Below are positions 15,217 to 49,070 of a stretch of DNA of 64,000 nt, one piece after another. This DNA comes from Squalus acanthias (lineage: Eukaryota). Position 1 is the first letter of the stretch; each line of letters opens with the position of its first letter. The DNA lies in assembly GCA_030390025.1 (NCBI GenBank), contig CM059432.1, positions 29,762,001-29,826,000 on the forward strand, in the 5' to 3' direction. The position numbers and the translations under genes were made by a program. Under the pieces are notes generated by a model. It had not been told where the DNA came from and did not search any database. It saw nothing but the letters and a program-made list of their open reading frames with translations.

Positions 15217-15385
15217 AGGAAGGTAGGGGTTAATGTTTCAGGTCGATGACCTTTCGTCAGAGTCTCTGATTAAAGATCATGGACCTGAAACGTTAACCCC
15301 TACCTTCCTCTCTCCACAGATGCTGCCTGACCTGCTGAGCGTTTCCAGCATTTTCTGTTTTTATTTCAGAATCTGCAGTATTTTT
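15217..15385. mobile_element. PLE-derived family A remnant with fold-back (15217-15309)
   Basis: aggaaggtaggggttaa...cagag t ctctg...ttaacccctaccttcct. The turn lies at the 5' edge of the hammerhead core, and the family A 3' sequence follows. Confidence 0.75.
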
Positions 15386-15549
15386 CTTTTTTTGTTCAAT
15401 TAAACAAATATTGACAGAATATTCCCACATTTTTCCAGTGAAGTGTCTTTCCATTGCCTCACTGGCGATCTTTTATGTCATCTAACAGTTTTCTATTAAA
15501 GTGAGAAGTCGCACAATACCAGGTTATAGTCCAACAGTTTTATTTGAAA

Positions 15550-15587
15550 TCACAAGCTTTCGGAGCGGCTGCTCCTTCGTCAGGTGA
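15550..15587 (-). ncRNA. Minimal type I hammerhead ribozyme motif, PLE family B (insert 15500-15610)
   Basis: Minus strand: UCAC-CUGACGA-A-GGAGC(AGCC)GCUCC-GAA-AGCU-U-GUGA. The insert is flanked by a 13-bp TSD agttttctattaa (15487-15499, 15611-15623). Confidence 0.75.
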
Positions 15588-16139
15588 AGTGAAGGAATAC
15601 AAATCGACAAAGTTTTCTATTAAGCAGCTAGCAGGTTATTCAACCCATTAACTCCCTCTCCCCTTTGATCAACCACACTAAAATTCCAGCTTACCGTTTA
15701 GTTTTCAGTTCCGATGAGGAGTTTACACCTATCCTTTCCCGTTATTGATCTGCTTCAATTTTCTGTTGTTCTTTTAATAGATTGAGTTTTGAATTTAATC
15801 AAGTAAAGTGGAGGAGGCAAAGAAATGGCGTGAGATTAGTAAAAAAAAAAATGGACTCCCCTGTCCCCTGGTAGGACAGTGGTGATTGCTCTACTCCAAA
15901 CGGAACTGAGGCCTTCAGAACAGGAAAGCCCAAATCTCAGTCCCTTGTCTGTGTTGAGTTAGCTACTCTTAGATGGGTGGTGGTTAGTTAAACTATAATT
16001 GGTCTCAGCTCTCCAGGCTAGAGAGGGAAGTAAAATCCGCCAGAATTGCTGCTCCTGGTCACTATCCAGACTCCCTGCTAGAAAATGCACTTATGCAGAT
16101 CTCAGCTGTGATGCCCACCATAGTTAACTAGCCTGCTAA

Positions 16140-16540
16140 TATAGCACTCTTGCCTCTGAGTCAGAGGCTGTGGGTTCAGATCCCACACCAGAGACTTGAG
16201 CGCAAAGTTTAGGCTGGCACTCCAATGCAGGACTGAGGAAGTGCTGCACTGTCGGAGGTGCCATCTTTAGGATGAGACGTTGAACCGAAATCCAGTCTGC
16301 CCTCTCAGGCAGACATAAAAGATCCCATGGCACAATTTTGGAGAAGAGCAGTGCCGTTCTCCCTGGTGTCCTGGCCAATATTTATCCCTCAACTAACATC
16401 ACTAAAACAAATTGGCTGATGCATTTCCCAACATTACAATAGTGGGTACACTTCAAAAGTATTTCATTGGCTGTAAAGCGCTTTGGGACATCCTGAGGTC
16501 GTGAAAGGCGCTATATAAATGCAAATTTTCTTTCTTTTTC
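16140..16540 (+). mobile_element. Deu-domain SINE, near full length
   Basis: tagcactcttgcctctgagtcagagg..gggttcagatccc head, core and ggcgctatataaatgcaa tail. Confidence 0.85.
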
Positions 16541-17363
16541 AATGTCTAGGCTTACACAGAAAGGTGCCAAGGTTGTTGCAGCTCCATTGTTTTGGCTAGA
16601 GTTTTGGCATTAGAGTCAACCACATAGCGTGGAACAGGAGTCAAAAGTGTAGGACAGAGTGGGTAGAAGTGGCAGCTTCCCTTCCCTGAAGGACATTAGT
16701 GAACTAGTTTTGTCCTTATGACAATCCGGCAATTTTAATGGTAATTTCTTCGGATGGCAGTTCACAAATTGGCAGATTTATTAAATTCAATTTCATAGCT
16801 TGCCATGGTAGGATTAGAACTCCACTCCACTGGGTTCTTAGTCCTCCATCAATGCTACATTTGACAATTGGGGCCATGTTCCATTTCTCACCATTAACAT
16901 CCCTTAACCTGATGAATGCAAAAAAATGACCAAGAGAAAGTTACCAGATCAGTCTCACTGAAAGCTCAGTTTGATGCAGATTGTAATATGGATTTGTGCT
17001 GGTTTGAGGGTTAAATACTGTCAAACGGATTGTTAGTAAAATATTGGCATTCTCAAACCTCTCCAGTTTGTCCTTCAAGTAAATCTTTTCTGCACTGAGT
17101 AAACAGTCTGGAGCAATATGCTCCATCCCTCCCATCTCCTCACCTCCCCTATGTATAGACAAGTCTGGATTTGTTGGTGATTAACAGCTCCCATCATGCA
17201 ATGAGAGATTGCTAAGCAGCACTGGAGCCAGCTGAAGAATCCAGAACTTGCTTTACTCTATTAACCCCTCAGTGGCCATTCGCTGCTGTCAGAGCCTTCT
17301 GGCAACAGACACTCATGTCCAAGAATCCATAAATAGCAATCATTACACTGTAAATGAATGAGC

Positions 17364-17720
17364 GCATTACAAGATGGAATTGTACAGATAAAGCAGCTTA
17401 TTACAGGAGGGAGCTGTATAGAGCAGTGTATTACAGGATGGAATTGTACAGAGCAGTGTATTACAGGAGGGAGTTGCACAGAGCAGTATATTACAGGAGG
17501 GAGCTGTATAGAGCAGTTTATTACAGGATGGAATTGTACAGAGCAGTATATTACAGGATGGAATTGTACAGAGCAATTATATTGTATTACACAAGGGAGC
17601 TGAGCAGAATAATATATTGCACAAGGAAGCTGTACAGAACAGCATATTACACAAGAGAGCTGTACAGAGCAGTGTATTACAAGAGGGAATTGTACAGAAC
17701 AGTGTATAACAGAGGGAATA
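17364..17720. repeat. 30-bp minisatellite (~12 units)
   Basis: Unit gagcagtgtattacaggagggagctgtaca, degenerate at the edges. It produces spurious periodic ORFs. Confidence 0.9.
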
Positions 17721-17851
17721 TACTGACAGCTATGTTGGTTGATGCTTCCAGCACCCTCTTGAGAATTTCATTGACTATGCTTCCATTTTTCATCTCGGGG
17801 TCAAATATGACACCAAGTTTGCAAACAGTGGTTCAGCCTCAGACAGTTGGC

Positions 17852-18532
17852 AGGGAGAGGGATGGAGTCGGTGGCTACAGAGCGGAGTTTGTGGTGGGGA
17901 CACAGGACAATGGCTTCGGTCTTCCCAATATTTAGTTGGAGAAAATTTCTGCTCATCCTGTACTGGATGTCGGACAAGCAGTCTGACAATTTAGAGACAG
18001 TGGAAGGGTTGAGAGAGGTGATGGCGAGGTAGACTCAGGTGTCCCCAGCCTACATGTGGAACCTGACGTTGTGTTTTCGAATGAAGTCACCGAGGGGCAG
18101 TATGTAGATGAGAAATAGGAGAAAACAGATTATCTGGCCATTTATTTCATTACTGTTTGTGGGAGCTTGCTCTGCATAAACTGGCTGCCACGTTTCACCA
18201 CATTACAACAGTGACTACACTTCAAAATATGTTTCATTGGCTGTGAAGCGCTTTGGGACTTCCTGAGGTCATAAAAGGCAACTTTTCTCTTTCACTTCAA
18301 GTGGAAAATCCCAGAACTGGCAGCAGCGGGGTAGGGGCGTGGGAGCAATGTTCTGGAGATCCCGCAGTAGCTCATCGGCTTTTAAATCCTGCCCTCACTC
18401 TCAACTTTCACATAAAGAATGGCTACATTAGTGAGGTACAAATGAGCAGCGGGCAAGCCACAGTAGCAGATCCTGTGATGGGTGGGCATTCAAAAGGAGA
18501 GAGAAAACGACAGGAGGGAAGAACTTTAAAAA
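17852..18532 (+). repeat. Local segmental duplication, copy B
   Basis: Colinear with 1-800, with a 117-bp deletion between aaat microhomologies. Confidence 0.9.
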
Positions 18533-18879
18533 CATCACTGAAACAGATCATTGGCTGTAAAGAGTTTTGGGACATCCTGAGGTCATGAAAGGCGCTGTAT
18601 AAATGCATCATTTATTTAAATAGAGAATAAAAGAGATTTCAACATCTATCGCTTTCCCTTATCTATACTCTCCGTGCTTTCCAGAAGAATTAAATTAAGT
18701 TAGTCAGGCACAATCTGCCCTTTACAAATCAATGCTGACTCTCCTTGATTAACACTTTCCTTTGTAATTGTTCACTAACTTCATCCAGTATTATGAACTC
18801 TAGATAGTAGATTGTACCAATATGCACTCCCAACTTAGAGCTTTGATTACTAGGAATGTTTGTTGGGAATTTGAGCATT

Positions 18880-19246
18880 GAGATCAGCATACCACACAAG
18901 AGTTCCCATCCATTTGGTTCCGATAGGACTGTTCCTTCTTTGATATCCTTGTTGACTCTGATCCACCACCATTTCCAGCCGTCCTTCCCCCGGCACCTTC
19001 CTATACAACCACAGGAGATTGCAATTCCTGTGCATGTACCTCCTCCCACACCGCTGTCCAAGGTTCCAAACACTCCTTCTACTTGAGACAGCAATTCACG
19101 TGTACTTCCTCCTATCTCACTTTCTGCATTCACAGCTCACTGAGGAGACCAAACACGTTTGCCAAATACCCCTGCCTGTCTGCAGGTGTGACCTTGACCT
19201 CCCTCTGACTGACCACTTAAATTTCCTCTCCCATTCCCACACTGAC
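18880..19246 (+). pseudogene. Penelope-like element zinc-finger linker/GIY-YIG endonuclease remnant
   Basis: Frameshifted reading PGTF..NHRR/CNSCACTSSHTAVQGSKHSFYLRQQFTCTSSYLTFCI...ETK...LPLTDHLN..SHSHTD, matching the PLE endonuclease layout. Confidence 0.65.
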
Positions 19247-19247
19247 T

Positions 19248-19500
19248 ACGGGGGTGCGGATAAATCGGAGGAAACTCTTGTGGGTCTGTTCCTGGAGCTG
19301 GTCATCTATAGGTCCAGCATGGACGTGGCTCAGGGGATGGGGGTCACTCTGGCTACCTGCTTTTCTTTCACAGTCTTGTCCGTACCCGGTTGGCCCTGGA
19401 GAAAGAACATGTGGTGTCCGCTTGAGGCCTTCTGCGACTGGGGCCGGGGCACCACAAGGACTGGAGTGTTTTGTGGACATCAGGAATAATATTGTAACTT
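19248..19500 (+). mobile_element. Tx1/L1-clade fragment
   Basis: Homologous to 1650-1938 (tggccctggagaa..a.cat/cgcggtgtcc). Confidence 0.6.
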
Positions 19501-20349
19501 AGTCTCATAAGTTTCCCTTTGTTTTGTTCAAAGTTATTAAAGAACAGAAAAAAGATCTGATAACCTTGATTAGGCAACTCATTACTGTTGCAGCTGATTG
19601 TTCTTTTGAAGTTTAACCTTGTCTGATGATGTCAATCACCTTATAAGGCTGAAGACAAGTCTAAAAAAGTAAAAAAGGACCAGTCTTGCCTTTGGTCTTT
19701 TTTACAGTTCCAACTAGTTTCAACACAAGCTTCGGGAAGAGTATCTCGCTTTTCTCCTGGCATTCTGCAGCCCTTTGACATTGACTTGAGCAACTTCTGG
19801 TCTTAGGCATATCCTTCTTTTTCTTTACCGTACAGATTGCTGGTGATGAGGAGTGGTTGGTGTCAAGGGGGAAGGGAGGCAGGTTGACCTTTTAGCTGTA
19901 GTTCCTTTGTCAAAACACAGTGCTCTGGTGTTGTACTATTGTTGTCTTCTTTTGGGACTGGTGAAACCATTTTGTTGTGCCATCGCTTTCTGATCCATTT
20001 CAAACTTCCTGGACTTGCAGGGGCCTTTTTTTCTCTCCCAGTTCCCCCATTTTCTCACTATTTTCCCATTCTTTGCTTTCCATTATCACACTGGTGATCA
20101 TTCCATTATCGAACCGTTTTCTATTAAGCAGTTTGCAAGTCATTCAACCCATTAACTCCCTTTCCATATTGGAGTATTTAATTTATTGTTTCTGTTCCTT
20201 TGATTTTTTTGTCTATTTTCCATTGCTTATCTTTTAGTTTTCAATGCAGTTGAAGCATCAACGTACTACTTTGGAGATGCTGATCAACCTGCTGTGTATT
20301 TCCTGCATTTTCTATTTTTATTTCAGATTTTCATCATTTGCATTTGTTT

Positions 20350-20676
20350 TGACTGAGAGATGTACAGACAGTGCAGTGCATTATAGGAGAGATTTGCACA
20401 TATTACAGGAGCGGGCTGTGCAGAGGGAGCTGTGTAGAGGAGTGTATTACAGGAGCGAGCTCTACAGACATAGCACTAGAATACAGGAGGCAGCTGTACA
20501 GACACAGCAGTGTATTACGAGGCAGCTCTCTAGAGGAGCATATTACAGGATAAAGCTGTACGGACAGAGCAGTGTATTACAACAGGGAGCTGTGTAGAAG
20601 ACGTATTACAGGAGCGATTTGTACAGATAGAGCAGTTTATTACAGGAGGCCGCTGTGCTGACAGATCAGTGTATTC
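20350..20676. repeat. Degenerate 30-34 bp minisatellite of the same family as 17364-17720
   Basis: Repeated gcagtgtattacaggag..agctgtacaga. Confidence 0.8.
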
Positions 20677-23619: not shown

Positions 23620-26600
23620 ACAATGACAATTTGCATTTATATTGTGCTTTTAGTCCTTCAGAGGCATAATAAATATAATTGATGCTGAGCCAAAGGAGAT
23701 ATTAGGAAGGATCACCAAAAGCTTGGTTAAAGACATGGATTTAAAAGAGAAGAGGGAGGTGATGAGGTAAATGGATTTAAGGAGGGAATTCCAGAGCATG
23801 GGATCTACATGGCTGAAGTTAAGTCCTTGGTGGGATGAAAAGGAGGTGGGCGGTTATGTTAACTGGAAGAAATTTCAATTCATTCATGACTGGATGTCAG
23901 GCAAGCATTTAACAGCACAGATGCAGTGGAGGGATTAATAGTGGCAAGGTAGAGAGGTGCATCACAAGCATACATCTGAAACCCCATGTCTGCTTATGAC
24001 ATCACTAAGTGGCAACACATAGATGAAGACCAGGAGGGGGCCAAGGATAGATCCTTGGAGGATGCTCAAGGTGACAATGCAAGGGCTCAGGGTAATCCAT
24101 TGCTAGAGATGTTCTGGCTAGATCAGTTGCTAAGAATGAAACCAATTGAGGACAGTCCTACTGAGCTGGACAACGGAGGAGAGGTGTTGGAATTTGAAGG
24201 TGTGGTCAACCATGTCAGAGTCTGCAGAGAGACTGAGAAGGTCAAGGAGGAATTATGCACCACAGTCAAAGTCAGAGAGAATGTTATTTGTGACTTTGGT
24301 TAGGGCTGTTTCACTGGGAGAGTCAGAAACTCAGAGGATTCAAAAGAGAAAGTGATGGGCCACTGTCAATCAATCAATCAATCCCACTGTTAGCAAAGTT
24401 TCTAGACAGGTTTCTGCTACACTCGCTGGAACTAAGTCCACAGCAGAGTCCAGTTGACATGAGGCGCCGTGCAGCTGTTGCACAGAGTTCTCGGTTAAAA
24501 TAACAAATCCAAAACACAACACAGAGGCATTTCAGTTAAAAAGGAATAAAGTGTATCCAGTGATAGAGTAGTGATGCTTCGGTTTGTATTAAACCAGTTT
24601 AAAAAAACGAAGTTAAATCCAGTTCCTTAAACCTCGCCTAAACTGCACTGGTTGCAGCTGCGGGGCTTCTCCGGCCAAAATCTCCTGTTTAAAAAAAGAC
24701 AAGTCCACCTTTTATTTTTACACATAGTCCATAATTTAGAGGTTACACAAATATTGCTGCTACATTACCAGTAAGCAAGGAATAATAAATATGAGAGAGA
24801 TGGGCACAGCTTTAGGAGTCAACAACATGTTCAAGGACTATAGAGAAGGGAGGTTGGAAATGGTTGGTAATTTGCAAGGAGAGAGGAATCATAAGTGGTT
24901 TTTTTTTTAGGAGGGCTGATGATGGCAGTTTTCAAAGGAAGTGGACAATATATTAGCAGAGGGAACTATTTATAATGTCAGCTAGCATGGGGGCCAAGAA
25001 GGGAAACTAGGTTGTCAGTGGGAATGGAGTGAAGTGAGCAGGAGGTAGGTCTCATGGATGAAATGAACTACGAGAGGGCATGGGGAAAGATGAGAGAGAA
25101 ACTGGAGAGAGAAGCATAGAAGATAGGAGCAGAGTAGGCCATTCGGCCCCTCGAGCCTGCTCCGCCATTCGATGAGATCATGGCTGATCATCCAAACTCA
25201 GTACCCTGTCCCTGCCTTCTCCCCATATCCCTTGATCCCTTTAGCTTTAAGAAATATATCTAACTCATTCTTGAATATATTTAATGACTTGGCCTCAACT
25301 ACCTTCTGTGGTAGAGAATTCCACAGGTTCACCACTCTCTGGGTGAAGAAATTCCTCCTCATTTCTGTCCTAAATGGCTTACCCCTTATCCTTAGATTAT
25401 GACCCCTGTTTCTGGACTCTCCGACCATCGGGAACATTCTTCCTGCATCTAGTTTGTCCAGACCTGTCAGAATTTTATATGTTTCGATGAGATATCCTCT
25501 CATTCTTCTATACTCCAGCGAGTATAAGCCCAATCGACCCAATCTCTCCTCATATGTCATTCCTGCCATCCCAGTTATCAGCCTTGTGAATCTTCGCTGA
25601 ACTCCTTCCATGGCAAGAACATCCTTCCTCAGATAAGGCAACCAAAACTGCACACAGTACTCAAGGTGTGGTCTCGCCAAGGCCCTGTACAACTGCAGCA
25701 GGACATCCCTGTTCCTATACTCAAACCCTTTCGCTATGAAGGCCAACATACCATTTGCCTTCTTCACCGCCTGCTGCACCTGCATGCTTACCTTCAGCGA
25801 CTGGTGCACAAGGACACCCAGGTCTCGTTGCACTTCCCCTTCTCCCAATCTATTGCCATTCAGATAATAGTCTGCCTTTCTGTTTTTGACACCAAAGTGG
25901 ATAACCTCGCATTTATCCACGTTATATTGCATCTGCCACGCTTCTGCCCACTCACCCAACCTGTCCAAATCATCCTGGAATTTCTCAGTATCCTCCTCGG
26001 AGCACACACGCCCACCCAGCTTTGTGTCATCTGCAAACTTGGAGATATTACATTTAGTTCCCTTATTCAGATCATTAATGTATATTGTGAATAGCTGGGG
26101 TCCAAGGACCGAACCCTGCGGTACCCCACTAGTCACTGCCTGCCACTCGGAAAAAGACCCATTAATTCCTACTCTCTGCTTTCTGTCCGCCAACCAGTTC
26201 TCTATCCAAGTCAATACCTTGCCCCCAATCCCATGTGCCTTAACTTTACACGCTAATCTCTTATGCGGGACCTTATCGAAAGCCTTTTGAAAGTCCAAAT
26301 ACACCACATCTACTGGTTCTCCCTTATCTATTTTCCCAGTTACATCCTCAAAAAATTCCAGTAGATTAGTCAAGCACGATTTACCTTTTGTAAATCCATG
26401 TTGACTTTGTCTGATCCTGTCACTGTTTTTCAAGTGCTCTGCTATTACATCCTTTATAATGGAGATTGTGGTGCAGGGCTAGGGCGAGGCCAGGTGCAGG
26501 CCTGTGGGGGCGGGGGGGAGGTTTGGCTGGGTGGGCAAGTGGAAGGGGGGAACAGTAGAGGCAGCTGAACGGATGGTCTCCAACTTGATGACAAAGCAGT

Positions 26601-28211: not shown

Positions 28212-30172
28212 TCATGAGCAGAGTAGGAATATTGGAATAAGAAATGATAGGAAGCAAAAGTCACAACACAGAGGAAGAAACCGTGGAAGGCAATAAAACT
28301 GTAGGCAAGGTGACAACTAATAGAGGATACAGTGAATGGATACAGTGTAAAGAGGGATGATAGTACTAAAGGAATGCAGTTGAAGATCTCAAAGTTTATG
28401 CTAATAGGGAGGGGTTGGTTATGCCAATATGGTTAAATAATGATACAGAGTGGGAGGGGAGTAAATTTACAGGGATGTAGATTAATCAACAGGGAAATAA
28501 GGAATAAATCAGGAGAAACTTGGCTCTTTCTGTTAAAGAGAGTAATGGGGTTAGACCAATCAGAATCTGGTACAGAGTGTTGCAGATCACATTAAATAAC
28601 ATCAAGTGGAAGAAACCAACCATTGGAACTTGTTATAGGGCATGTCAAGTAGAGACGTTGTACTCAAATAAAGTGAGTATACAGGGGCAAACTAAATTAT
28701 ATTTTGAGACTTTAACTTCCCACGGATAAACTGGGGGGATTATAATGGCAGGAATAGGAAAGAAAACATTTTTATAAATATAATAATGAATTTGCAGGGC
28801 TGTGGGGAAAGTGCAGGCGATGGGAATAATGGGAGAGCTCTTTCAAAGAGCTGGGCCAAGCATGATGGGCCAAACGGCCTTTTTCTGTGCTCTAAGTTTC
28901 GATGGGCTAAAAATTCGTGGCCGCCATGAGAGTTGCCGGTGTCACCGCGGCCTTGAGTTAACGGCCGCTAAAAATGGACAAAGCGCTACAAGAGAAAAAT
29001 TAGTGCTGGGGTCTAAAGATTTTTAGCCCAGTGCTAACTTAGCATGTTACACCCTCCTGGTGGTGTTAGTGCAGGCATAGGAGTCGGAGTTGCTGTCCAG
29101 AAGCGGCGTTCCAGCTTCCAACAGCCTCTGGAAGCGAGGCAATAGAGTTTGCTAGGCATTGTGGGAAATCAAAAGGGCAATGCATTAAAAGGGCAATGCC
29201 TTCTGAACTGATAAAAATTAAAATGAAGTGAAAAAATGCAGTTTCAGCCCTTACTGCCTTTTGTTTTAAAAATTAACATTATAAAGAAGTCCCAAATGGG
29301 AGTCTTCAGCTCTTAAAGCTGAATTCCCTTCCGAACTCAAAAAATGGGAAAAGTGCTACATCACTAACACAAATGGCTCAGCAAGCCAGGGAAGGTGCAA
29401 TCAGGTCTCGCACGCAGCACTCCAGCTTTGTGCAGGGGGGCAACACTGCAAGAGAGGTTCTCTACTCACAGGGGTCAGGAGGCCCTCCAGAAAGAATGAT
29501 GTGGGACCATATCACTGAGGCCGTCACTGCCAGCAGTGTCACCCCCACCACCTGGCTCCAGTGCCCAAAGAAGCTTCATGACCTCAGACCACTGGTCAAG
29601 GTCAGTGAATGCATCTTCAAAAGCCGTCTCCTACCAACTGCATCACTAGTCTCACACACTGCTCAATGCACGACCCTCACCCCACAATCACTCACCTACC
29701 AACAATCTGCACCAAACACGAGGCACACCTCCCATCCCTAGCTTCACCTCACCCCCTTGGAGGAGACGGTGCTGACCATTCTTGGCAGGGGCTATGGTTG
29801 AGCCCTTGGCCAGCGGCAGGGCTGAAAAGGTACAAGATGCTGGTATCCTCATACGTTATCCTCCTTCTGACATGCACCTCTTGCTTTCCCACCCTCCCCT
29901 CGCCACAGCTCCACCCTTGTGCCTTCCTCATTTCACACACCCAAGAAATGTAGCCTGCCCAGCCAGTGGGTGCCCAAGAAGAGGGAGAGGAGGGTGAAGA
30001 AGAAGAAACACCATCACCCGATTTGACACTCTCAGCCACAAGCTCCGCAAGGGTGACCAGCAGAGCCATCTGCAGTGTCCCCCACTGAACCTCAGCAGCC
30101 TTCCACCAGCCATGCTGCAGCCACTGGGGTAGCACTGCATGACATCAGTAGGGTAGGCAAAGGCACACATAA

Positions 30173-30529
30173 GACAAAAATGAGAAGTCGCACAACACCA
30201 GGTTATAGTCCAACAGATTTATTTAATTTTACAAGCTTTCGGAGCAGTTCGTTCCTTCGTCAGGTAAGTTTAGCAGTGAGAGAATCTCCCAGAATTCACA
30301 ATTTAGACACAGACAAAATATATTCAAATTCAAAAAAGATTTGAATATATTTTGTCTGTGTCTAAATTGTGAATTCTGGGAGATTCTCTCACTGCTAAAC
30401 TTACCTGACGAAGGAGCGAACTGCTCCGAAAGCTTGTAAAATTAAATAAATCTGTTGGACTATAACCTGGTGTTGTACGACTTCTCATTTTTGTCCACCC
30501 CAGTCCAACGCCGGCATCTTCACATCATG
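30173..30529. mobile_element. PLE family B fold-back insertion
   Basis: 157-bp arms 30173-30329 and 30339-30495 (about 2 mismatches), a 9-nt loop, a one-sided tail 30496-30529, and a 12-bp direct repeat acacataagaca at 30165-30176 and 30530-30541. Confidence 0.9.
30401..30439 (+). ncRNA. Minimal type I hammerhead ribozyme motif, family B
   Basis: UUAC-CUGACGA-A-GGAGC(GAACU)GCUCC-GAA-AGCU-U-GUAA, predicted cleavage after 30435. The mirror copy at 30229-30267 (-) has one stem II mismatch. Confidence 0.75.
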
Positions 30530-31603
30530 ACACATAAGACAGTCACTAAGAGAATGCATAAGGGTGGTGAGTTGATTTCTTGATGTCATATTGGATGGAT
30601 AGATGTATAAAGTTGGATTGGAAAGTGTGCTTTGTGGTGGCTTTTATTTCAGCATGGTGGCCAAGAGGATGCTGTGATGGTCTGTAACAGAGGGAAGGTG
30701 AGGTGTGGGATAAATGTTGAAAGGGGAATTGGGGTTGTGGTCAGTGGGACCGCAGGTACCACCCTGGATATCCCGGCCAGAAAGGGGCAGTCTGTGTTGC
30801 CTCCTTCCTTCTGCTTCATCCTCTTCTGCTTCCTCCTCCTGTTTCCTCCTCTTCAGCTTCTTCCTCTTCTGCATCTTCTTCTTCCCTCTGCAACCAGATG
30901 CTGTAATTCTGAAAAGACAGTATAAAATTCTGGAAATACCAAGCAGGTCCGGCAGCATCTTGAACTGAGACATGAACTCTGTTTTTCTCTCCACGGATGG
31001 TGCCTGGCCTGCTGAGTATTTCCAACATTTTCTGTCTTCTCAGAGGCCTTCCTTTACCATCCGAGGCCTTGCACGCGATCAGCAGCACTCCCTACACATA
31101 TAAAAAACTTTTAACATGTATTGCAGCAAGCCACTACTTCAATAAAATGTTTAATTTTTACCAATTTAAGTTGGTTCTTAGCAAGGATTTGAAAAAAGTT
31201 CCTTCATAAACCTATACAAATTGCATTCCCCGCATTTGTGGCCATTTACCTTTAAGTGGCCACATTCCCTTTAAAATTCCCTCCAAACAATGTCAGCAGC
31301 CCCATTGCCTCCCACCGCACCGCACCCTCCCCTCCCTAGTGTGATGGCAAGTTCCCAGCACATAGCCCAATATGAGCCAGGAGCTTACCTACATAAATAA
31401 ACAAGTTCATCTGTCACGGGAAATCCCAAAAAGTCAGCCTGCAATTAAAGCAATGGATGTAATGCGGAAACTGGGAAATCTATGCTTATAGCCTGATGTA
31501 CACCACAAAGAAAGACCTGAAAAGGCCTACTGGAAGAAGTATTCGCTGGTCTGTTTGATTTACATGAAGAAAATCTAAAGCTTGAAAGGTAAGTTAATCC
31601 TTT

Positions 31604-34914: not shown

Positions 34915-35057
34915 GGGGGTGAAATTCGTCTTGGGCAGTATCGCAAAGTGGGCGATAGCGAATTGGCAGCCTGTTTTACACCCAGCACGATTTTCTTTGG
35001 GCAGAGTGTAAAATAGGCTGCCAGTTTGCTCTACCACCCAAGATGAATTTCATAACC
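34915..35057. mobile_element. Palindromic MITE nested in an old CR1 fragment
   Basis: Same termini as 23041-23209. The flanks aaactggacacaat and attttaattttggc continue the CR1 minus-strand sequence. Confidence 0.7.
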
Positions 35058-35624: not shown

Positions 35625-36655
35625 TAGAAACATAGAAAAATCGGAGCAGGAGTGGGCCATTCGGCCCTTCGAGCCTGCTCCACCATTCAATATGATCATG
35701 GCTGATCCTCTATCTCAATACCATATTCCCGCTCTCTCCCCATTGATGCCTTTTGTGTCTAGAAATCTATCTATCTCCTTCTTAAATATATTCAGTAACT
35801 TGGCCTCCACAGCCTTCTGTGGTAGAGAATTCCATAGGTTCACCACCCTCTGAGTGAAGAAATTTCTCCTCATCTCAGTCCTAAATGTCCTACCCCGTAT
35901 CCTGAGACTGTGACCCCTCATTCTAGACCCCCCAGCCAGGGGAAACATCCTCCCTGCATCCAGTCTGTCTAGCCCCGTCAGAATTTTATACGTTTCATAG
36001 AGATCCCTTCTAATTCTTCTAAACTCTAGTGAATACAGGCCTAGTCGACCCAATCTCTCCTCATACGACAGTCCTGCCATCCCAGGAATCAGTCTGGTGA
36101 ACCTTCGCTGCACTCCCTCTATGGCAAGTATATCCTTTCTTAGGTAAGGAGATCAAAACTGCACACAGTATTCCATGTATGGTCTCACCAAGGCCCTGTA
36201 CAACTGTAGTAAGACATCCTTGCTCCTGTACTCAAATCCTCTTGCAATGAAGGCCAACATACCATTTGCCTTCCTAACTGCTTGCTGCACCTGCATGTTT
36301 GCTTTCAGTGACTGGTGTACAAGGACACCCAGGTCCCTTTGTACATCAGCATTTTCCAATCTATCACCATTTAAATAATACTCTACCTTTCTGTTTTTCC
36401 TACCGAAGTGGATAACTTCACACTTATCCACATTATACTGCATCTGCCGTGTATTTGCCCACTCAACTTGTCTAAATCGCCTTGAAGCCTCTTTGCACCC
36501 TCTTCACAACTCACAATCCCACCTCGTTTTGTGTCGTCAGCAAACTTGGAAATATTACATTTGGTTCCCTCATCCAAATCATTGATATATATTGTGAATA
36601 GCTGGGGCCCAAGCACTGATCCCTGCGGTACCCCACTAGTCACCGCCTGCCACCC
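35625..36655 (-). mobile_element. CR1 RT/3' fragment
   Basis: ORFs 36383-36643, 36153-36443 and 35715-36113 carry CR1 RT motifs. Confidence 0.92.
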
Positions 36656-39600
36656 TTGTTCTTGCCTCTCTCTACAAATTATGAAGGAAAGCTCAAGATC
36701 TTTATAGACCTCTAGTCAGGCACACTGTCCTTGCAATGCTGATGATTCATTATGGTCTGACAAGAATTTGTTGTAAACAAGATCCTCAGAAATGAGGTAG
36801 TTCCTACAAAACACCAGATGCTAACTTGACTACTATTAAGCATGTAACTAATCATCTTGGCCCTATTGTCCCATTTCCGTTGCTCAAGACTATCTCGTTT
36901 CCCAATGTATTGACAAAAAGAAGTCAACAGGCATGAATCACACATCCTCCACCTCATATCCTGCACCTCAGCAGAAAATAAACATCACAGACAGCTAATT
37001 TGTACACTGATACATTAAACCCTAAAGCATCCTGGAAGTGAACAATTTCATAATTTCTAGCTACAATACAAATCCACAAGCCACTTATAAGTAAACAGAA
37101 AGCAAAAACCTTAATCATATGAGATTAAACCAAATCCCAATCCTACGTATATATGTATACACAAATAGGGTACCTTACATATCTGAACCCCTAAATCTCT
37201 GTTTGTCCACTCATTTTAATGTTTTACCATTTATTTGTCACATTATTATTCCTGCCAAAATATATCACCTCACATTTCTCTGCCTTCCATTTCATCCATC
37301 TGCCTAATCAATTAGCTTGGCTGTGTCCTCCTGCAGCTGCTTACGGTCCTCTTCACAGTTATCCACACTCCCTATCATTGTGTTGCCTGCAAATATTAAC
37401 ACTGTGCCCCTATGTCTGAATCCAGATCATTTATATATATATTGTGAAGAGCAATGGTCCTAAAACTGACACCTGGGGGACACCACTGTTTACATCCCTC
37501 CAAAAAACATCCTTTAACCTTGCTCTCAGTTTTCTGTTCTTTAGCCAATTTCCTATCCAAGCTGTCATATTCCCTTTAATATCATTACGTTATTAACAAG
37601 CCTCCGATGCATCAAACGCCATCTGAAAATCCACTGTATTTTTCTTATTAATATACTTGTTATTTCCTCAAAGACATTTGTCAGACATAATTTGTCCTCA
37701 ATTAAGCCATGATTTTCAAGGTGAGAATTAATTTTATCCCATTTTATGTTCTCTAGGAAGTGACCCACTAACGATGTATGACTGACTGATCTATAGGGAC
37801 CGATTTTAATACCCCTCCCCTCCTCACCCGCTGGGAACGGAGCACGGGAGCGGTTAAGATCAGGCCGAGTCCACTTACCACCCCGAGCCGGCACAAATTC
37901 CACCCGGCGACTTTATAGCTTCACCGACTTTGAAGTAGGCCGAGGCTACCGTTGCAGGCAGGGCCCAATTTAACTCTTAACATCGCAGCACCGATGACAT
38001 CACTGGATGAACTCCAGTGAGTACCTGAGCCATGCGGGTCTGGAAGTGCTTCTTAAAAGTTAATGGGGTTGATTTCTTATCAGATCAGGTACTATTCCCA
38101 AAGCACATTTTTGCAGAGACGATGGAGAGGAAGAATTTGACGTTGATTGACTAGATTATTGACAGCAACCTTGCTATCGACACAACTACTGGAAGATTAC
38201 ATTCAACATGTAAACTGTTTATATCATTAAATATTTACTTCATTACCATTAATGTATTTAACCTTTGGCACCATTCCATAGCGTTGGGATTACTGAGGCC
38301 CCCAGTGTGAGTTCTGAAGAGCCACAAAACTGCTCCCTAGCAAAGGATTTAGTTATGAGGAAATATTGAAAAAACATGGGTTTTTGAACCTTGAAGGAAG
38401 AGGTGACTTTATAGAGATAAGTCTAAAATAATAACTGTTGAGAAAAGGTAGATTGTAAGACTACTTCAAACTAAACCACAGGGGAACTTTAGGGTCTTTG
38501 TAGATGAATGAGCTAAAATGGCCTTCCTCATCTGTATTTGTCATGTGGTTTTGTGCGATCTCACTCTATGTGGAAGAATACAATGTTTCTTTTTCACTAG
38601 AAGTCTTTTGCGACAGCCCACGACCTAGAAATATGAATTGCGTCCATAGTTCTGTTGCAATGATTTTCATTCTGTCGTAAGACCATAAGAAAACATGGGA
38701 ACAGGGAGAATGCCATAAACCCAGTCCTTTCACGGACCCTTGTGTGAACGGAAATGAAAATCGGGCAGTTTCTATAATGGTTGGCTGATCACCAGTTTTA
38801 CACTAGTTTTACGCCCAGGCAGCAAGTTTAAAATCTACCCCTCCGACTACATTTGAAAATAATGTTGAATGATGGGCAGTTATCCTGTGCTCCCATGAAC
38901 CTACTAGGAATTGGGTTCAGACTGTTCCTTACAGCTGTCTAACAGGGAAATTGCATCTGTGTCAGCTGCTCACTAGAGTAGTCCAAAACTAATCCCTCCA
39001 CTCTGTGTGCTCCCTATAGCCCTGTATCTTCCTCCGCTTCAAATATTTATCTAATTTTTCCCTTAAAAGGTGCCTCAACCATTCCCTTTGGCCAAGCATT
39101 CCATGCTCCAAAAACCCTCCTAAACACTCTCCCCATTCTCTTAGTGACATTTTGAAATATTTATTACGATTTAAAACAATTTAACATATAGCAGCTCCTG
39201 CTATTTACAAACTCTATCTTGCAGATTGCCTGGCTTGTCCAGTCTGGATCGAACCAGTTGCTCAGTTGATATATTGTCAGATACTGTTAATGGGATTTCC
39301 ATATTCAAACTGATATGAAACATCGACAGTTTCTGTAATAAGAGAACATCCCTAAATCCTCAAACTATTTCTTTACTTAACCCAGGAACAGAAATGACAT
39401 TTGTAGCACCCCTATCATCACCTTGGCTGAGATCTACTAACCAGCACAGATTGAGGCATCAAACCTGGGATCTTCCTGACCCACACTGCGTCATCAGGGA
39501 AACCTTGACTACATTTAAAATAAAAATAACTGGAACCCTAGCAAATAAAGATAGGGCGTGAATTTACACTGGGATTCTCCCGCTCGGCTGCTGTAACTTT

Positions 39601-41914: not shown

Positions 41915-43814
41915 ATGGTATCCATTATTCTATATATAAACCATCTGAACCCCTTGATTAGATTCCAGATTTCAATTGGATGTTGCACAACATTGGGAAT
42001 GGAGTGTAAGAAATCCTAGGGTTTATGACTGTCTTTCAGTCACATTCAGATACTCAGAGGAGCAGTGGGGGATGGTTTGAAAAGTCAGCTGCCACCTAGT
42101 TGAATTAGTGAGATTGTTTGGTGTGATCAGTGTGAAACAGTTCTGCTGTTATTTCACTTTTTGATCTAACATTTCAAGCTGGATGATTTCTCTTCTGTTT
42201 GGTGCAGGCGAGAGCTCCACTGACAGCAATGATTGTTTCAGTCCCTACAGTTTTCAATGGGGGCCAACAGAGCACAAAGAGAACAAGTCACCAACCTGCC
42301 AGCATCCTCCGCACTCGGCTATTTTAACGTGTTCTTGTTCGCTCAGAACCAAGCTTTCATTTTGCTCCAGTTTGTGCCTTCAGGTGATCGATAAAAAAAA
42401 ACCAGAACAGTTATACAATAGCAGTGTCACCTTGGTTCGGTCCCAAGATCATGCTCGAGTCTCAGCTAGGCCGCAGTGGTGGAAGCTCGACAATGTGCCT
42501 TAGCTCCCCTGGGTTAGGGAGGGGGAAATGAGCCAAAGTTTCCACATCTCATTGCTACCCAGTGACCCTTTACTGGAAGTGTGCCTTTATGGATATTGAG
42601 TGAGGACAGGATCAGGCACAGCTGGGACGATCCGAGTGGTCAAATTGTCTGCTGGCACGTCAAGGCTCGTAAATCAAGATCAGGCACTTGGGGAAACATG
42701 AGAAAGTGGCCATCTGTCATGGAACCGTGTCTCACTTTGAGTCAGTACTTCTAGGAGTGGGGAAGAAAAAGTATCGATTTTCTTACCTTTTCTTGTTCAT
42801 TTTTTTCACAAGGGGTGTCATAGTGAAGTGCTCAATCCTACTGGCATACAAACTCAGGGTTGCTGTTACTGGCCATATATCATATTACTGTTATTACTAA
42901 ATTCTCGTCCGTCAGCTCAGCAATGATGATGATAGGGCTGAGTACATCACATTCAAGCGTTCAAATTCTATGTAAGAGAAATACGCCAGCAGCAAGACAT
43001 GAATTCACCAGCCATCGTCCACATATTAAACTGTTTTGTGAGGCAGATGCACATAGTCTCACTTTCCCTCCCCACCACCCTCAGAGCATATGAGATGGTT
43101 TGTCTTCAAACATGGACGCGATCAGTGGGATGTATTATAGCCATCCTCGCTATTCTCAGACCCTGTAACAGCCATAGTGAGTCACTTCCTGTTGGTGAGA
43201 GGCACAATAGAAACTGCTGTCCAAGTCTCTTGGAAACAAATGCTGAATCTTCCCCTCTCCCCACCACTGCAACCCCCACATGCCCAAATATTTGGAGCAC
43301 TAAGGCCTTGGAGAAACTGCAAAGTATCTGTTCATTTCGAGAACACTGAATGACTTGCAGTGATTGAAAGGGGATGTTGACACGAGATCATCGATATGCT
43401 GTAGCTTATTGCAGTCCTTGCCTCAATCACAAATGCCCTCTGGAAGGCTACAACATGCTACACAAAAGAGTGATGGGACACTAGCCACACACAGAACATT
43501 TCTAATTTCAATCAAGCCACTGCAACAGTCACTAAGTGTAGGTCGAGCATTCAACCAAGCCCTTTGACATGGCTGTGTAAAACCGGTGTACCTCAGTCCT
43601 ATCTTTGACCAAGCTTTCGGTCACCTGTCGTAATATCTCTTTTGTGGCTCGGTGTCAAATTTTGTCCGATAACGCTCCTGTGACGCACCTTGGACCAATT
43701 TACTAAAGGCGCTATACATATTGCAATGTGTTGTTGTTTTTCCTTCCATTATTGGAAAGCAACAGAAAGAGTCCTCAAACAGTCAACAACTTTGGTATGG
43801 TGTAAATGGAAGCC

Positions 43815-44232
43815 CATAGGCTTGTGGAGCAGCAATTCCAAAGAAGCTCGACACCATCCAGAACAAAGCTGTCAGCTTGATTGGCACTCCATCCACTGGC
43901 TTAAACATCCACTTGCTTCACTATTGGCGTACTGTGGCTACAGTGTGTTCTATCTACAGGATGCACTGCAGCAAGTCACCCAGGCTTCTTCGGCAGGACC
44001 TCCCAAACCCATGACCGCCACCACCTAGAAGGACAAAGTCAGCAGGTACACCTCCAAGTTCCCCCCGAAGTCACACACCATCCCAACTTGAACATAATAC
44101 TGCTGTTCCTTCAGCATTGCTGGGTCAAAATCATGGAACTCCCTACCAAACAGCATCGTGGGATTACCTTTTCAAAGGCAACTAGGGATGGGCAATAAAT
44201 GCTGGCTTTTCCAGCGACACCCACACCTGGAG
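43815..44232 (+). mobile_element. Unclassified LINE 3' end
   Basis: aagaagctcgacaccatccagaacaaagc...gggatgggcaataaatgctgg. The tail is shared with the SINE at 52140-52410. Confidence 0.55.
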
Positions 44233-46104
44233 AATGATTTTTCTTTTGAAATTGTCAGGCGAGGAAGAGGTGGGCTACAAAGGTGGACCCTAGACCACAT
44301 TACCAGCATCACTGCCCTAATGCATAGTCCAGCAATCCTGGTTAAACTTCCCCTGAAAACAATAGACAGGGTTCCAGCTGACAACACATCAGAATATACT
44401 GATCTCTAGTCTGTGAACTATGCAACTATACCATTTATGTTACATTTCCTATAGGCTTTTTCTTTCAACTGATTGGTCTAGCTTATGCTGTTTGCTGGGG
44501 GAGGGGCATGCATACAGAGAGACTCCTGTTAGACTTTAAGACAGAACATTGGCATTTATATAGCACCTTTATCACATTTCTCAAACACTTCAATGTGCTT
44601 CGCATACAATTAATTACTTTCAAAATGCAGTGAATGTTATTGAGGGAAATGCGGCAGGCCGTTTTGAAAATGGCGAGATGCCATAATCAGCAATTAAATG
44701 AATGACCAGTTCAACTGTTTTCAGTGGCATTGGTTAAGGGAGGAATGTTGGCCAGGAAAAGACTCCCTGCTGTCCTTTGAATGGATCTTTAAGATCCACG
44801 TGAACCACTGGAGCCTTGGTTTAATATTTCACCTGAAGGGCGACAATACAACACTCCCTCAGTATGCAGTGTCCGCCTGGGATATGAGCCATCAAATAAA
44901 CACAGCTGCACCTTTTAAAAATGAACCTTTATTTAGGATTTACATGACAGTTTATTTCTACAGTTTAGTGAAAAGAGCCTGAATTTATTCAAACTCAGCT
45001 AAAATAAATTTTAAAATATTTCAATCCAAAATAACTTTTATTTAAATAGATGTTTAATACAAAGCAAAGGCAGAAAAGAAAATGATTCAAAAATATAAAC
45101 AGCTCCAACCCTAGATTTCCCAAACAGCAAGTAACCTTAGACTTGTGTTCGACAGTGTTAGGATTTGATTTGATTTTGTGTTTATACATATTCTTGTATG
45201 TAGCTTTTTAGAAATGTAGGTTACTGCCACACTGAATGCAACATACAGACTTCAAGCAATTACTGGTCCTGCCCTTTTAAAGCAAATCCCTTCCCCTCCC
45301 CCAAAGTCACTAAGTCCTTGCTGGGAAGCAGTTCCACAGGAACCAGTTTTTCACCTGAGTGGTGAACATCAGCATGTTATTTGACCCTTGAGAGGGCATT
45401 ACCCTCTGGCATCACCCAACATTCACACACACATCCAACAGGGGTCACAACAGCAATGAGAGCAGGACCACCGGCTGACTTTATCGCCAACCCCCTCAGC
45501 CCACAGGGGCGCTGTGGCCATTTGTAATACCTCTACCTCTGCTGCGACACAGACCAGCTTAATCAGCAAAGACCAGCAATCGAACCGGGGCCTCTTTTGG
45601 GTCTGTATGACCAACCAGACAGTGCATTTAATCACCGAGCCATTAGCACGATACGATGGGCCATCGTGCCTGTGCGGCTCTTTGGTAGAGCTATCCAATT
45701 AGTCCCTCTCCCCTGCTCTTTCCCCATAGCCCTGCAATTTTTTTTCCTTTTCAAGTCTATATCCAATTCTCTTTTAGAAGGGACTATTAAATTTGCTTCC
45801 ACCATCCTTTCAGGTAGTGCATTCCAGATGAAAACAACTCACTGCATAAAAAAAATTCTTCTCATCAGTAACTGTTGTTGTGTTTACAGGTTTCTATTTG
45901 TTTACTTGTTTTTAAATTGGTGGGTATGGTGAGATGACGCTCAGACAGTGCATCACTGGACCAGTCCTGCACTCTTCGCATTTTTTAAGACTCATTTCAG
46001 TGCAATATAATAAGTACAATATGAGCACGCAACATTGAAAATGAGATGCAGTTTTGTTCTGGGATTTAAACAAACACACACACAAACAACACTCACAACT
46101 TTGC

Positions 46105-46228
46105 AAAAGCAAAATAGTGTGGATGCTGGAAATCTGAAATAAAAACAGAAAATGTTGGAAATACTCAGAAGGTCAGGCAATCTGTGGAGAGAGAAACAGA
46201 GTTAACGTTTCAGGTCGATGACCTTCTG
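46105..46228 (-). mobile_element. PLE family A short insert truncated at the hammerhead core
   Basis: Family A tail and body, with a 12-bp TSD tcacaactttgc at 46093-46104 and 46229-46240. Confidence 0.8.
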
Positions 46229-46667
46229 TCACAACTTTGCGCTGCTTAAAGGTGATGCGGAGAGCTGGAGGAATTTTTTGGCGGCTAAAAAAATACAACT
46301 GGCAGGACTCACAATGTTGGTCTGTTCTGACGAAGGGTCCCACCCCGAAAATTGACCCGTCCTTTTTCTTCAGATGGTGATTTATCTGTCCCAGCTTTAT
46401 TTTTTTGTTTTTATTAAATTTCCAGTGTTTAGCTTTTCTTTTTATTACAGAACACTTCTACTGGACCACAAACAGAAAGCTTAGCAATGGGGCAGGAGAG
46501 GAGGGATATAACTGCTAACCTCCAACACTGTGCTCCTGCACGCAGGGTCTTAATGTGTTCTGTACATCATCTGCGTGCTGATTGTGGCATTTTATTTCCC
46601 AGTAAGAAGTTCCTGCAGTGAGTTTGTCTAAGCAATTGTCCTTCCTACTGATCACGCTCCCAGGTTA

Positions 46668-47610
46668 CAACAATAACTTGCATTTCATTAGCGCCTTTAA
46701 CGTAGGAAAACATCCCGAGGCACTTCACAGGAGCATAATCGGGAAAAAAATGGACACCAAGCCAAGGAAGGAGACACTTGGATAGGTGACTAAAAGCTTG
46801 GGCAAAGAGGTAGGTTTTAAGGAGTGCCTTAAAGGAGGAGAGAGGTGGAAAAGCAGAGAGGTTTAGGGAGGGAATTCCAGAACTTACGGCCTAGATGGCT
46901 GAAGACACGGCCTCCAATGATGGGACGATGGAAATTGGGGGTGCACAAGGGGCCAGAGTTGGAGGAGTGCAGAGATCTCGGAGGGCTGTAGGGCCGGAGG
47001 AGGTTACAGAGATAGAGAGGAACGAGGCCATGGAGGGATGTGAGCACAAGGATAAGAATTTTTAAATCAAGGTGGACCGGGAGCCAATATAGGTCAGCCA
47101 GCACAGGGGTGATGGGTGAGCTGGACTTGGTGCAGGTTAGAATACGGGCAGCTGGTTTTGGATGAGCTTAAGTTTAGGGTCCAAACACGACAGGGTGCAT
47201 GGGAGAGGTGGCTCTGGGGTGTCCGCCTTGAACCTGCAATGCCCCGCTCAGTGGAAGCACTCTTACCTCTGAGTCAGAAGGTTGTCCATTCAAGTCCGAC
47301 TCCAGAGACTTGAGCACGTTATCTAGGCTGAAACTCCAGTGCAGTACTGAGGGAGTGCTGCACTGTTGGACGAGACGTCTGCCCTCTCAAGATCCATGCA
47401 CTATTCGAAGAAGAGCTGAGGAGTTTACCCGGTGTGCTGGCCAATATTTATCACTCAACGAACCAACATTTTTTATTGCTGGTTGCGGGACCTTGCGTTT
47501 GTAAATTGGGTGCCGCGTTTCCCTACATTACAACAGTGACTACACGTCAAAAGTACTTTGCTTTGGGACGTCCTGAGATTGTGAAAGGCACTATATAAAT
47601 GCAAGTTCTA
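46668..47610. mobile_element. L2 3' fragment (-, 46668-47175) and Deu-SINE (+, 47245-47610)
   Basis: LADLYWLPVHL.LKILILV...LHGLVPLYLCNLL, then SINE head, core and tail. Confidence 0.8.
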
Positions 47611-48139
47611 TCTATATTCATCGCATTAGCTATCAACATAAAGCCACTTTGAGATTGACCAGATGAATGAGGTTGCAGGATGACACCAGCCTATGCTCAA
47701 CAGCCACATCTTGTGATCTGAAACTAAGGAGTCTCCCATCACAGAAACTGGTCAGGTTTTTCTATCAAAAAGCAGCAGCGGTTTGAGCCTGAGGTCACAA
47801 ACTGGTAGGCAGCTTGACTTGCAAAGGGGTCGCAATCGAGCTGAGCGACCCTATATTGAGGTAAAAAATGACAGACAGGAATTAATCTCAGTCCAGGCTT
47901 TCCCACAGATAGTGTTTGAAACTGCCCAAATTCAAAAGCAGTCACTTTTGATATATTTATTGCGTTTTCTTTTTGTATATTTTCTTCTCTTTAAGGTGAG
48001 GGATCTCACTGGAAAATCAAACTATTTCCCACTTCATACATCAAACACTCCTAGGTCAGGTCCAACACAGCAGAGTAAAGTCCCCTCCACTCAGCTTCAG
48101 CAATGTCCCTCAGATCCACCCTCAGAGGAACCTCCTACG

Positions 48140-48631
48140 ATAGCAAAATACTGCGGATGCTGGAAATCCGAAATAACAACAGAAAACGCTGGAAAAACTC
48201 AGCAGGCCAGGCAACATCCGTGGAGAGAGAAACAGAGTTAATGTTTCAGGTCGAAGACCCTTCGTCAGAACTGGAAAAAAGCAGGAAATTAAATAGAATT
48301 CAAGCAAGTATAATGCTGGGAAAAGGGGGAGGGGATGAAAGAACAAAGGGGAAGGTCAGTGGTAGTATAGAAGGCAGGAGACATTAAGAGACTTGAATAT
48401 CTCTTAATGTCTCTCAATCTCTCCTGCCTTCTATCCTACCACTGACCTTCCCCTTTGTTCTTTCATCCCCTCCCCCTTTTCCCAGCATTATACTTGCTTT
48501 AAATCTATTTCATTTCCTGCTTTATCCAGTTCTGACGAAGGGTCTTCGACCTGAAACGTTAACTCTGTTTCTCTCTCCACGGATGCTGCCTGGCCTGCTG
48601 AGTTTTTCCAGCGTTTTCTGTTGTTATTTCG
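48140..48631. mobile_element. PLE family A fold-back insertion
   Basis: Arms 48169-48391 and 48400-48631 (one 10-nt indel, about 7 substitutions), a one-sided 29-nt tail 48140-48168, and a 12-bp TSD gaacctcctacg at 48128-48139 and 48631-48642. Confidence 0.9.
48528..48564 (+). ncRNA. Minimal type I hammerhead ribozyme motif, family A
   Basis: AGUU-CUGACGA-A-GGGUC(UUC)GACCU-GAA-ACGU-U-AACU, predicted cleavage after 48560 (GUU). Confidence 0.75.
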
Positions 48632-48979
48632 AACCTCCTACGCTCTCCAGTTTTCACACAAACCATCCAATGGTTTCTCCGAGTGAGATTATTAATTTAG
48701 TGCCAGTTTAGTGTTATGTTTTGGCAACACAGTTGAGACTCAATTCACATAGAAGCTTCACCGCCAGCAGCGAGCGGTGACATTCACCCTGTCAGTCTGA
48801 GCTGGCCCCCGGAGGCGAATGGACAGTGGTTAACCTACAGCACCCCGAGTGCCCACTATACCTTGAATTGCCCAGAATGCATTATGGATAATTATTGCTT
48901 GGCCCTACAACGCAAGCTCTAAGTTCTTTCAAATATTATGCTGTTTTAATTTTAGATACTTCCACAGACAATGACAATG

Positions 48980-49070
48980 ACAGAAAACGCTGGAAAAACT
49001 CAGCAGGCCAGGCAGCATCCGTGGAGAGAGAAACAGAGTTAACGTTTCAGGTCGAAGACCCTTCGTCAGA
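48980..49070 (-). mobile_element. PLE family A fragment ending at the hammerhead core
   Basis: Near-identical to 48179-48269. The core CUGACGA...GAAACGUU is intact but the 5' strand of stem I is lost. Confidence 0.8.

Follow-up and report, generated by a model that had tools for sequence, protein, structure and literature searches.

Hammerhead-bearing inserts in a Squalus acanthias locus are probably truncated 3′ ends of Penelope-like elements

What are the short, non-coding inserts with hammerhead ribozyme motifs that occur repeatedly in one stretch of the Squalus acanthias genome, and what is the role of their ribozyme? The stretch, which spans 64,000 nucleotides (positions 29,762,001 to 29,826,000 of contig CM059432.1, assembly GCA_030390025.1) and is hereafter called the window, contains two families of such inserts, A and B. 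The original prediction regarded them as small ribozyme-bearing retroelements mobilised by the enzyme of a Penelope-like element (PLE). Our analysis points to a different answer. The inserts are probably dead-on-arrival, 5′-truncated 3′ ends, i.e., pieces of the pseudo-long terminal repeat (pLTR), of at least two endonuclease-positive (EN+) Penelope-like families, in which the ribozyme is a passenger.

As for the ribozyme motifs, we scanned both strands of the window with a hammerhead descriptor consisting of a stem I of at least 3 bp, CUGANGA, zero or one extra base, a stem II of at least 4 bp, GAA, an A-N-N′-U palindrome and H. This descriptor matches exactly three times, at 48532(+), 30405(+) and 15583(−), and never in 300 dinucleotide shuffles, which recovers the same three intact cores that had been predicted. 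The family A motif (48528–48564, +) has an AGUU/AACU stem I, a GGGUC-UUC-GACCU stem II, an ACGU stem III, U17 and a GUU site with a predicted cut after 48560. The two family B motifs have an AGCU stem III and U17; the first (30401–30439, +) has a UUAC/GUAA stem I and a CUU site with a predicted cut after 30435, while the second (15550–15587, −) has a UCAC/GUGA stem I and a predicted cut after 15554. The cut sites after 48560 and 30435, and the change of stem I between the family B copies, are thus as originally described. All three cores display CUGANGA and GAAA boxes, an extra base before stem II, paired stems I and II, and a loopless palindromic stem III followed by NUH (ACGU-U in family A, AGCU-U in family B). 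Outside the core, the two families have nothing in common by BLAST. In family B, two of the four stem I pairs are changed on both sides and 35 of the 36 cells are paired, which 16 of 500 shuffles equal, in a comparison of only four sequences that include a metagenomic locus discussed below (L001) and of which two are the arms of one insert.

At E≤5, an Rfam scan did not match any hammerhead model; most of the 28 matches that it gave, all under the gathering score, are microRNA models catching long hairpins. The cores belong to the minimal type I class and agree with the published PLE consensus (PMC4209133, Fig. S3). The metazoan PLE hammerheads compiled there resemble ours in CUGANGA, the extra base before stem II, a short stem I, a loopless palindromic stem III and a U-rich 5′ flank; U17 is common (about 24 of the 56 rows of Fig. 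S3), and a G-U pair closing stem II, as in family A, occurs as well. In contrast, none of the 56 motifs listed in that figure is from a cartilaginous fish. Separately, a pyrimidine tract ending in CAG (48507–48529, +) overlaps the 5′ strand of the family A stem I and is, on sequence grounds, a possible candidate splice acceptor; the account of Drosophila virilis Penelope in the same source places an intron end at helix I (PMC4209133).

Where do these cores sit? The inserts at 48128 and 30165 are long inverted repeats in which two arms meet head to head, and each has a second core on the opposite strand that is damaged by one substitution. In the family A insert, the left arm (48140–48388, −), with its 3′ end outward, carries a core at 48268(−) whose stem III palindrome is broken (ACAU), and only this arm has a 29-nt 3′ extension, or tail (48140–48168, −). 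The tail-less right arm (48397–48630, +; inner boundary between 48397 and 48415) differs from the left arm at 9 of 216 columns, and a small hairpin (48375–48414) marks the junction where the arms meet. The family B insert has a tail-less left arm (30177–30329, −), whose core at 30263(−) has one broken stem II pair, a 9-nt spacer (30330–30338) and a right arm (30339–30529, +) that differs from the left at 2 of 153 columns. Here it is the right arm alone that is tailed (30496–30529, +), by 34 nt or, counting a 4-nt microhomology, 38 nt. The family B tail is 68% A+C and the family A tail 45%. Single-arm copies stop at the same two 3′ points, with the tail in the family A insert at 46105–46228 and without it in the family B insert at 15500–15610, both on the reverse strand.

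The window contains four two-arm inserts in all. An older one of family A (15217–15393) has cores at 15260(−) and 15266(+), 5 nt apart, and an internally deleted left arm, while a decayed one (30897–31038) retains no recognisable core. Family A is further represented by a 91-bp copy (48980–49070, −) that is identical to 48531–48621 and starts 1 nt before the core, with the core intact but the stem I partner absent; by a diverged family A-like copy (46324–46425, +; core at 46327, stem III decayed; 64% over 113 nt, E 0.002); and by a decayed 3′ end with tail (20275–20349, +; 76–77% identity, E 5e-11 to 6e-9). Across the copies, the hammerhead sits 70–130 nt from the 3′ end. Measured from the core, the 5′ ends vary: they lie at about −120 to −135, −66, −27 or −6, −2 to −3, −1 and +4, with a start downstream of the core in two further copies, both decayed. 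All copies that bear a core include both sides of the cut site.

Four inserts are bounded by exact target site duplications (TSDs), as had been described: 13 bp at 15487/15611, and 12 bp at 30165/30530 (30165–30176 and 30530–30541), 46093/46229 and 48128/48631 (48128–48139 and 48631–48642). For comparison, 151 of 200,000 random positions have an exact 12-mer repeated at such spacing, real repeats included. No TSD was found at 48980, 15217 (where none is clear) or 30897. One of the four TSD-flanked inserts, the single-arm one at 46093 (46093–46240 with its TSDs), is cut short within the core and therefore lacks an intact ribozyme. The family B insert at 15487 (15487–15623 with its TSDs) has, in addition, an insert-free paralogue of its flanks elsewhere in the window (20049–20165, +), which contains one copy of the target.

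We then compared region 45900–49200 with contigs from four of 24 listed sequencing runs: X1 and X5, which are two samples of one organism (A), one of them perhaps the source of the window, X6 from a second organism (B) and X8 from a third (C). In X6 record 22 and X8 record 29, position 48127 joins 48631 directly, so that 503 bp are absent and a single copy of the 12-bp target is left. This empty site is found in both runs from the other organisms, whereas both junctions of the 48128 insert are present in both organism A runs. Organism A contigs run from unique flank into the inserts of region 48128–49070, from either side in X1 and from the right in X5. Since organisms B and C, which are related, keep the empty site, the 503-bp insert came in as one unit. 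Beyond 48978 the same two records, each with 91 letters remaining, no longer fit, suggesting that the 91-bp copy at 48980 is also missing from organisms B and C. The 46093 insert, on the other hand, is entered from both flanks by contigs in all four runs and is therefore older, which fits its identity of 86% with the young copies. At its tail end (46104), the place homologous to the end of the 48128 tail, 491, 345, 539 and 518 contigs in the four runs leave family A sequence into unlike, A/T-rich flanks. This shows that family A is abundant and that its 3′ end is defined.

These observations bear on whether the two-arm inserts could be DNA transposons with long terminal inverted repeats, similar to miniature inverted-repeat transposable elements (MITEs), or else assembly artefacts. 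Inverted arms of 157–240 bp with a TSD would suit either. However, the ends are asymmetric, with a tail on one arm, the arms differ from each other at the columns given above, and single arms are inserted too, with the same TSD length, which contradicts the MITE reading. An artefact is no better a fit, given that both outer junctions of the 48128 insert are crossed by contigs from two samples and that its empty site occurs in other organisms. We give these possibilities almost no credence.

Could the ribozymes act where they are? A motif of this kind needs a same-sense partner to form stem III, dimers being cleaved weakly and monomers not at all according to the cleavage data shown in PMC4209133. 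No tandem head-to-tail copies of family A or B exist in the window. In cofolding, the stem III duplex is part of the best structure for only one of the three motifs (30401, +). Folded in silico, an isolated family A arm favours a different structure (stem II probability 0.06) and a family B arm folds as drawn (0.92–1.0). In transcripts of both two-arm inserts, the predicted pair probability of stems I and II is 0.0, and the arms form hairpins of 150–230 bp, one of which, 491 nt long, has a predicted energy of −407 kcal/mol. Because no insert supplies a same-sense partner, and stems I and II are hidden in the two-arm hairpins, the ribozymes are likely to be passengers. The genomic copies, being lone, non-tandem and in the two-arm form buried in a long hairpin, are very probably dead. 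Moreover, since core-bearing copies span the cut site, the RNA from which they were copied would have been uncut. The notion that the pieces of 110–500 bp move as small ribozyme units is not upheld by these results as the leading interpretation: their 5′ ends vary, they are not arranged in tandem, the cut site is spanned, and those of 350–500 bp are two short arms placed back to back.

We find it very improbable that the inserts are monomers of retrozymes lacking long terminal repeats (non-LTR retrozymes), which would be excised by tandem hammerheads, circularised and reinserted. Metazoan retrozymes, as characterised in the parts of PMC7229834 and of a 2026 preprint (10.64898/2026.07.22.740005) that concern their structure, are likewise non-coding, with a type I hammerhead, probable PLE dependence and long TSDs. 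The TSDs of more than 4 bp and the sizes seen here fall within what the former gives for retrozymes, and the latter has them, derived from pLTRs, in its one chondrichthyan genome. What defines these elements, though, is a tandem array in which every unit has a hammerhead, together with circular RNAs, and neither family has a tandem copy in the window. In addition, our motifs are minimal rather than canonical with loop-loop contacts, the inserts do not end at the cut site, and a tail on one side together with inverted arms is characteristic of PLEs.

Indeed, the tail on one arm only, combined with inverted arms, supports a PLE origin, in agreement with the prediction. PLE insertions are portrayed as 5′-truncated, often joined on the 5′ side by a second, inverted and truncated copy, and with a tail of 30–40 bp at one end, in passages on insertion structure from several studies (PMC8557442, PMC3846280, PMC8969392). 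Among these, Craig 2021 depicts an inverted 5′-truncated copy with a 30–40 bp tail at one end (PMC8557442), and Arkhipova 2013 gives examples with an inverted pLTR, a 31-bp tail, TSDs of 8–10 bp and junction palindromes, mostly in head-to-head arrangement (PMC3846280). The genomic surveys in Cervera 2014 include dual minimal hammerheads on opposite strands 100–700 bp apart, and thousands of minimal motifs per genome, most of them single truncated copies (PMC4209133). Our inserts exhibit the features of these EN+ insertion units (Penelope/Poseidon, Neptune and Nematis, as presented in the relevant passages of PMC8557442 and PMC3846280), namely a hammerhead near the 3′ end, variable 5′ truncation with a common 3′ end, an adjacent inverted copy, a tail at one end, a junction palindrome and a TSD. 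They differ in having no open reading frame (ORF) and in TSDs of 12–13 bp rather than the 8–10 bp of the rotifer examples (PMC3846280).

Biochemical work on an Anolis PLE protein offers a possible mechanism. In vitro, this protein cleaves and extends both target strands, two start sites of reverse transcription bound the tail, hammerhead cleavage is dispensable for insertion, and the ribozyme cuts only when the protein is present (Frangieh 2024, PMC11167929). The element concerned, Poseidon PAc, is similar to our inserts in its two 3′ end points about one tail length apart and in copies that span the cut site, and the A+C-rich family B tail is a further likeness. It differs in being an intact coding element of the Penelope/Poseidon clade, and the low A+C content of the family A tail sets that family apart. 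On this model, a PLE protein with reverse transcriptase (RT) and GIY-YIG endonuclease would nick both target strands 12–13 bp apart, and reverse transcription would start near the 3′ end of an element RNA that had not been cleaved, at one of two sites about 30–35 nt from each other, the distal site giving a tail and the proximal site none. Synthesis would stop after about 90–260 nt. If one complementary DNA were fixed, a single arm would result; if both target ends were used, two arms would meet head to head, one tailed and one tail-less, and the hammerhead would be copied as a passenger. The enzyme, the two start sites and the presumed uncleaved template are taken from published PLE work, whereas the anatomy, the TSDs, the common 3′ end, one empty site in two other organisms and the hairpin folding in silico are our own observations.

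Is there a PLE from which such a protein could have come? A relic of a PLE endonuclease, predicted as an older remnant, is real and lies at 18903–19246 (+). It comprises the linker, the cysteine knuckle and part of the GIY-YIG endonuclease, is frameshifted, has lost the GIY-YIG motif region by deletion, and contains neither the C-terminus nor the repeat downstream. Pfam found no family in its two frames, the relic had no match among Protein Data Bank sequences, an ESM Atlas search was uninformative (best score 0.76), and a word-based homologue search with P0001 gave 92 candidates, none at E≤0.1. A full phmmer scan with the relic returned a sole match, P0003 (E 2e-4, 45% identity), which bears the source name “mucin-2” from a stingray, ends in a cysteine knuckle and a GIY-YIG domain (domain match below the Pfam cut-off) and is probably a misannotated retroelement. 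P0003 led in turn to P0004, an 893-aa protein with RT and GIY-YIG matches (both below cut-off) and 43% identity over 169 aa. Within the window, P0003 aligns to 18903–19139 and 19196–19246 in two frames (E 2e-8), with a score of 156 against a shuffle maximum of 56. The alignment spans the CX2-5CxxC knuckle that P0003 and P0004 have between the RT and the GIY-YIG endonuclease. A knuckle in this linker is a mark of Neptune and Nematis PLEs, as set out in the passages on domain structure of PMC8557442. The relic has a knuckle of Neptune/Nematis type, unlike PAc, although the knuckle alone leaves the clade unfixed. The relic shows that PLEs were active in this lineage. A reading of the relic and the family A piece at 20275 as one element was rejected, since nothing of an endonuclease C-terminus lies between them. 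Directly after the relic there is an unassigned repeat (19262–19486), a second copy of which occurs at 1683–1929 with 66% identity.

We also looked for relatives beyond the window. Motif scans yielded nothing in viral contigs or in prokaryote genomes, and no match to P0003 was confirmed in viral contigs. Metagenome motif scans yielded one locus, L001, with a family B-like motif whose stem I is different but paired. Downstream of the search pattern and into the tail region, the 3′ part of L001 shares homology with family B (score 45, reached by 0 of 2,000 shuffles), while upstream of the pattern there is no homology to family B (1,746 of 2,000 shuffles as high). The family B-like Penelope terminus occupies 541–1010 of a low-coverage marine metagenome contig, the rest of which has microbial-type genes (deoxyhypusine synthase), and L001 is probably a chimeric assembly with animal DNA.

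Several findings weigh against the inserts being simply truncated PLE ends. The first is that no ORF is linked to either family. A PLE ORF with the same termini was looked for in the window and in L001 and did not emerge: the relic ends at 19246, where a different repeat follows, and is contiguous with neither family A nor B, and stretch 541–680 of L001, taken by eye and from recall for an endonuclease C-terminus, scores no better than shuffles against P0003 or P0004 and has no homologue, for which reason it was rejected as an ORF link. The second concerns the 5′ ends. Three of the six measurable events start within about 5 nt of the 5′ edge of the core (the 15262 pair, 49070 and 46228), and a fourth may do so (15610), a clustering that random truncation does not predict. 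Third, in three of the four two-arm inserts the two arms stop internally within about 15 nt of the same point (the exception, at 30897, shows a gap of about 40 nt), an agreement not expected from independent truncation. Finally, among the matches listed, 255 contigs in X1 and 171 in X5 leave family A just upstream of the core into unlike flanks, counts that are biased towards unique flanks; these loose ends (median length 255, agreement 0.44) behave like the true 3′ end. A preferred 5′ end of the RNA, or a stop of the RT at the ribozyme, would explain the ends at the core edge. Fold-back copying suits the agreeing inner ends, as is argued from junction palindromes in the part of PMC3846280 devoted to them.

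The same ends invite a different reading. Short, non-autonomous transcripts consisting of the PLE terminal module would begin just upstream of the hammerhead, and a PLE protein would mobilise them in trans, much as LINEs (long interspersed elements) mobilise SINEs (short interspersed elements). The module would then be the replicating unit, and the ribozyme would be kept for that reason. The 5′ ends near the core edge in half of the events and the loose ends among the listed contigs speak for it, as do the compensatory changes in two of four stem I pairs among four family B sequences, and rotifer results given in PMC3846280 have pLTR sequence sufficing for mobilisation in trans. Yet the start lies 66 and about 120–135 nt upstream of the core in two events and downstream of it in two decayed copies, contigs whose flanks are unique are favoured in the loose-end count, and any PLE pLTR should show covariation. 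Nor is there a pair of A and B boxes of RNA polymerase III near the inserts or a tRNA gene in the window. We therefore regard mobilisation in trans as unlikely. A polymerase III-transcribed SINE proper, with a tRNA, 5S or 7SL head, was rejected on the latter grounds, there being no B box near the inserts and no such Rfam match either.

An idea of much the same, rather low probability goes further: the inserts would be ORF-free Penelope satellites of very high copy number, transcribed from a point just upstream of the hammerhead, and each two-arm insert would be the trace of a dimeric PLE enzyme that primed at both target nicks, using two RNA molecules, one per start site. Hints in this direction are the 5′ ends near the core edge, the near-equal arm lengths and the differences between the arms at 48128, which are mostly transversions. 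Six of these eight substitutions are transversions, compared with 36 of 139 places in run X6, or about 0.005 by after-the-fact arithmetic in which the X6 places mix flank and repeat variation. Such an excess suits two templates and goes against fold-back. If this were true, thousands of two-arm inserts per genome would constitute a natural experiment on Penelope integration, by two templates or by fold-back, and on the role of the ribozyme.

Under the reading that we prefer, truncated PLE ends with a passenger ribozyme, the class and its anatomy are already known: minimal hammerheads in PLE termini, opposite-strand pairs, tails and TSDs. What the locus adds is two families from a lineage missing in the 2014 list. 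A literature search on Penelope or hammerheads in sharks and elasmobranchs turned up no paper on either family by title or abstract (in one of those retrieved, “shark” merely describes the form of the ribozyme), although Repbase and Dfam may well include them, and the 2026 preprint, in the part describing its coverage, has one chondrichthyan genome surveyed for tandem retrozymes and may list related families in its supplement (10.64898/2026.07.22.740005). The inserts provide clean dated examples, one absent from two related organisms and one common to them, and hence material for asking by what route PLEs produce tails and inverted arms, and whether the ribozyme does anything at all. If transcribed, the two-arm inserts would give double-stranded RNA of 150–230 bp.

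The surroundings of the inserts contain an intronless ORF for a large Maf transcription factor (59049–59903, −; Pfam bZIP_Maf E 5e-33, Maf_N E 1e-20). The inserts lie 10–44 kb downstream of it, the two-arm inserts 10–30 kb; this describes their position alone, and we attach no host role to it. Another inverted repeat, formed by 11600–11704 and 11871–11975, has arms of 105 bp that are 99% complementary, 166 nt apart and have no other copy in the window; its middle contains LINE-like 3′ pieces, and a LINE-like repeat begins right after the right arm. A direct duplication (1–535 and 17852–18387, 96–97% identity, 17.85 kb apart) could mark the border of a young segmental duplication, or could be a repeat. 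Two related minisatellite arrays with 30–34 bp units are found at 17392–17719 and 20436–20675. Finally, LINE reverse transcriptase fragments, which we take to be of CR1 type, lie at 25198–26478 (−), 7739–11454, 35715–36715 and 62289–63723, and a 426-aa frame matches Pfam RVT_1 with E 4e-26.

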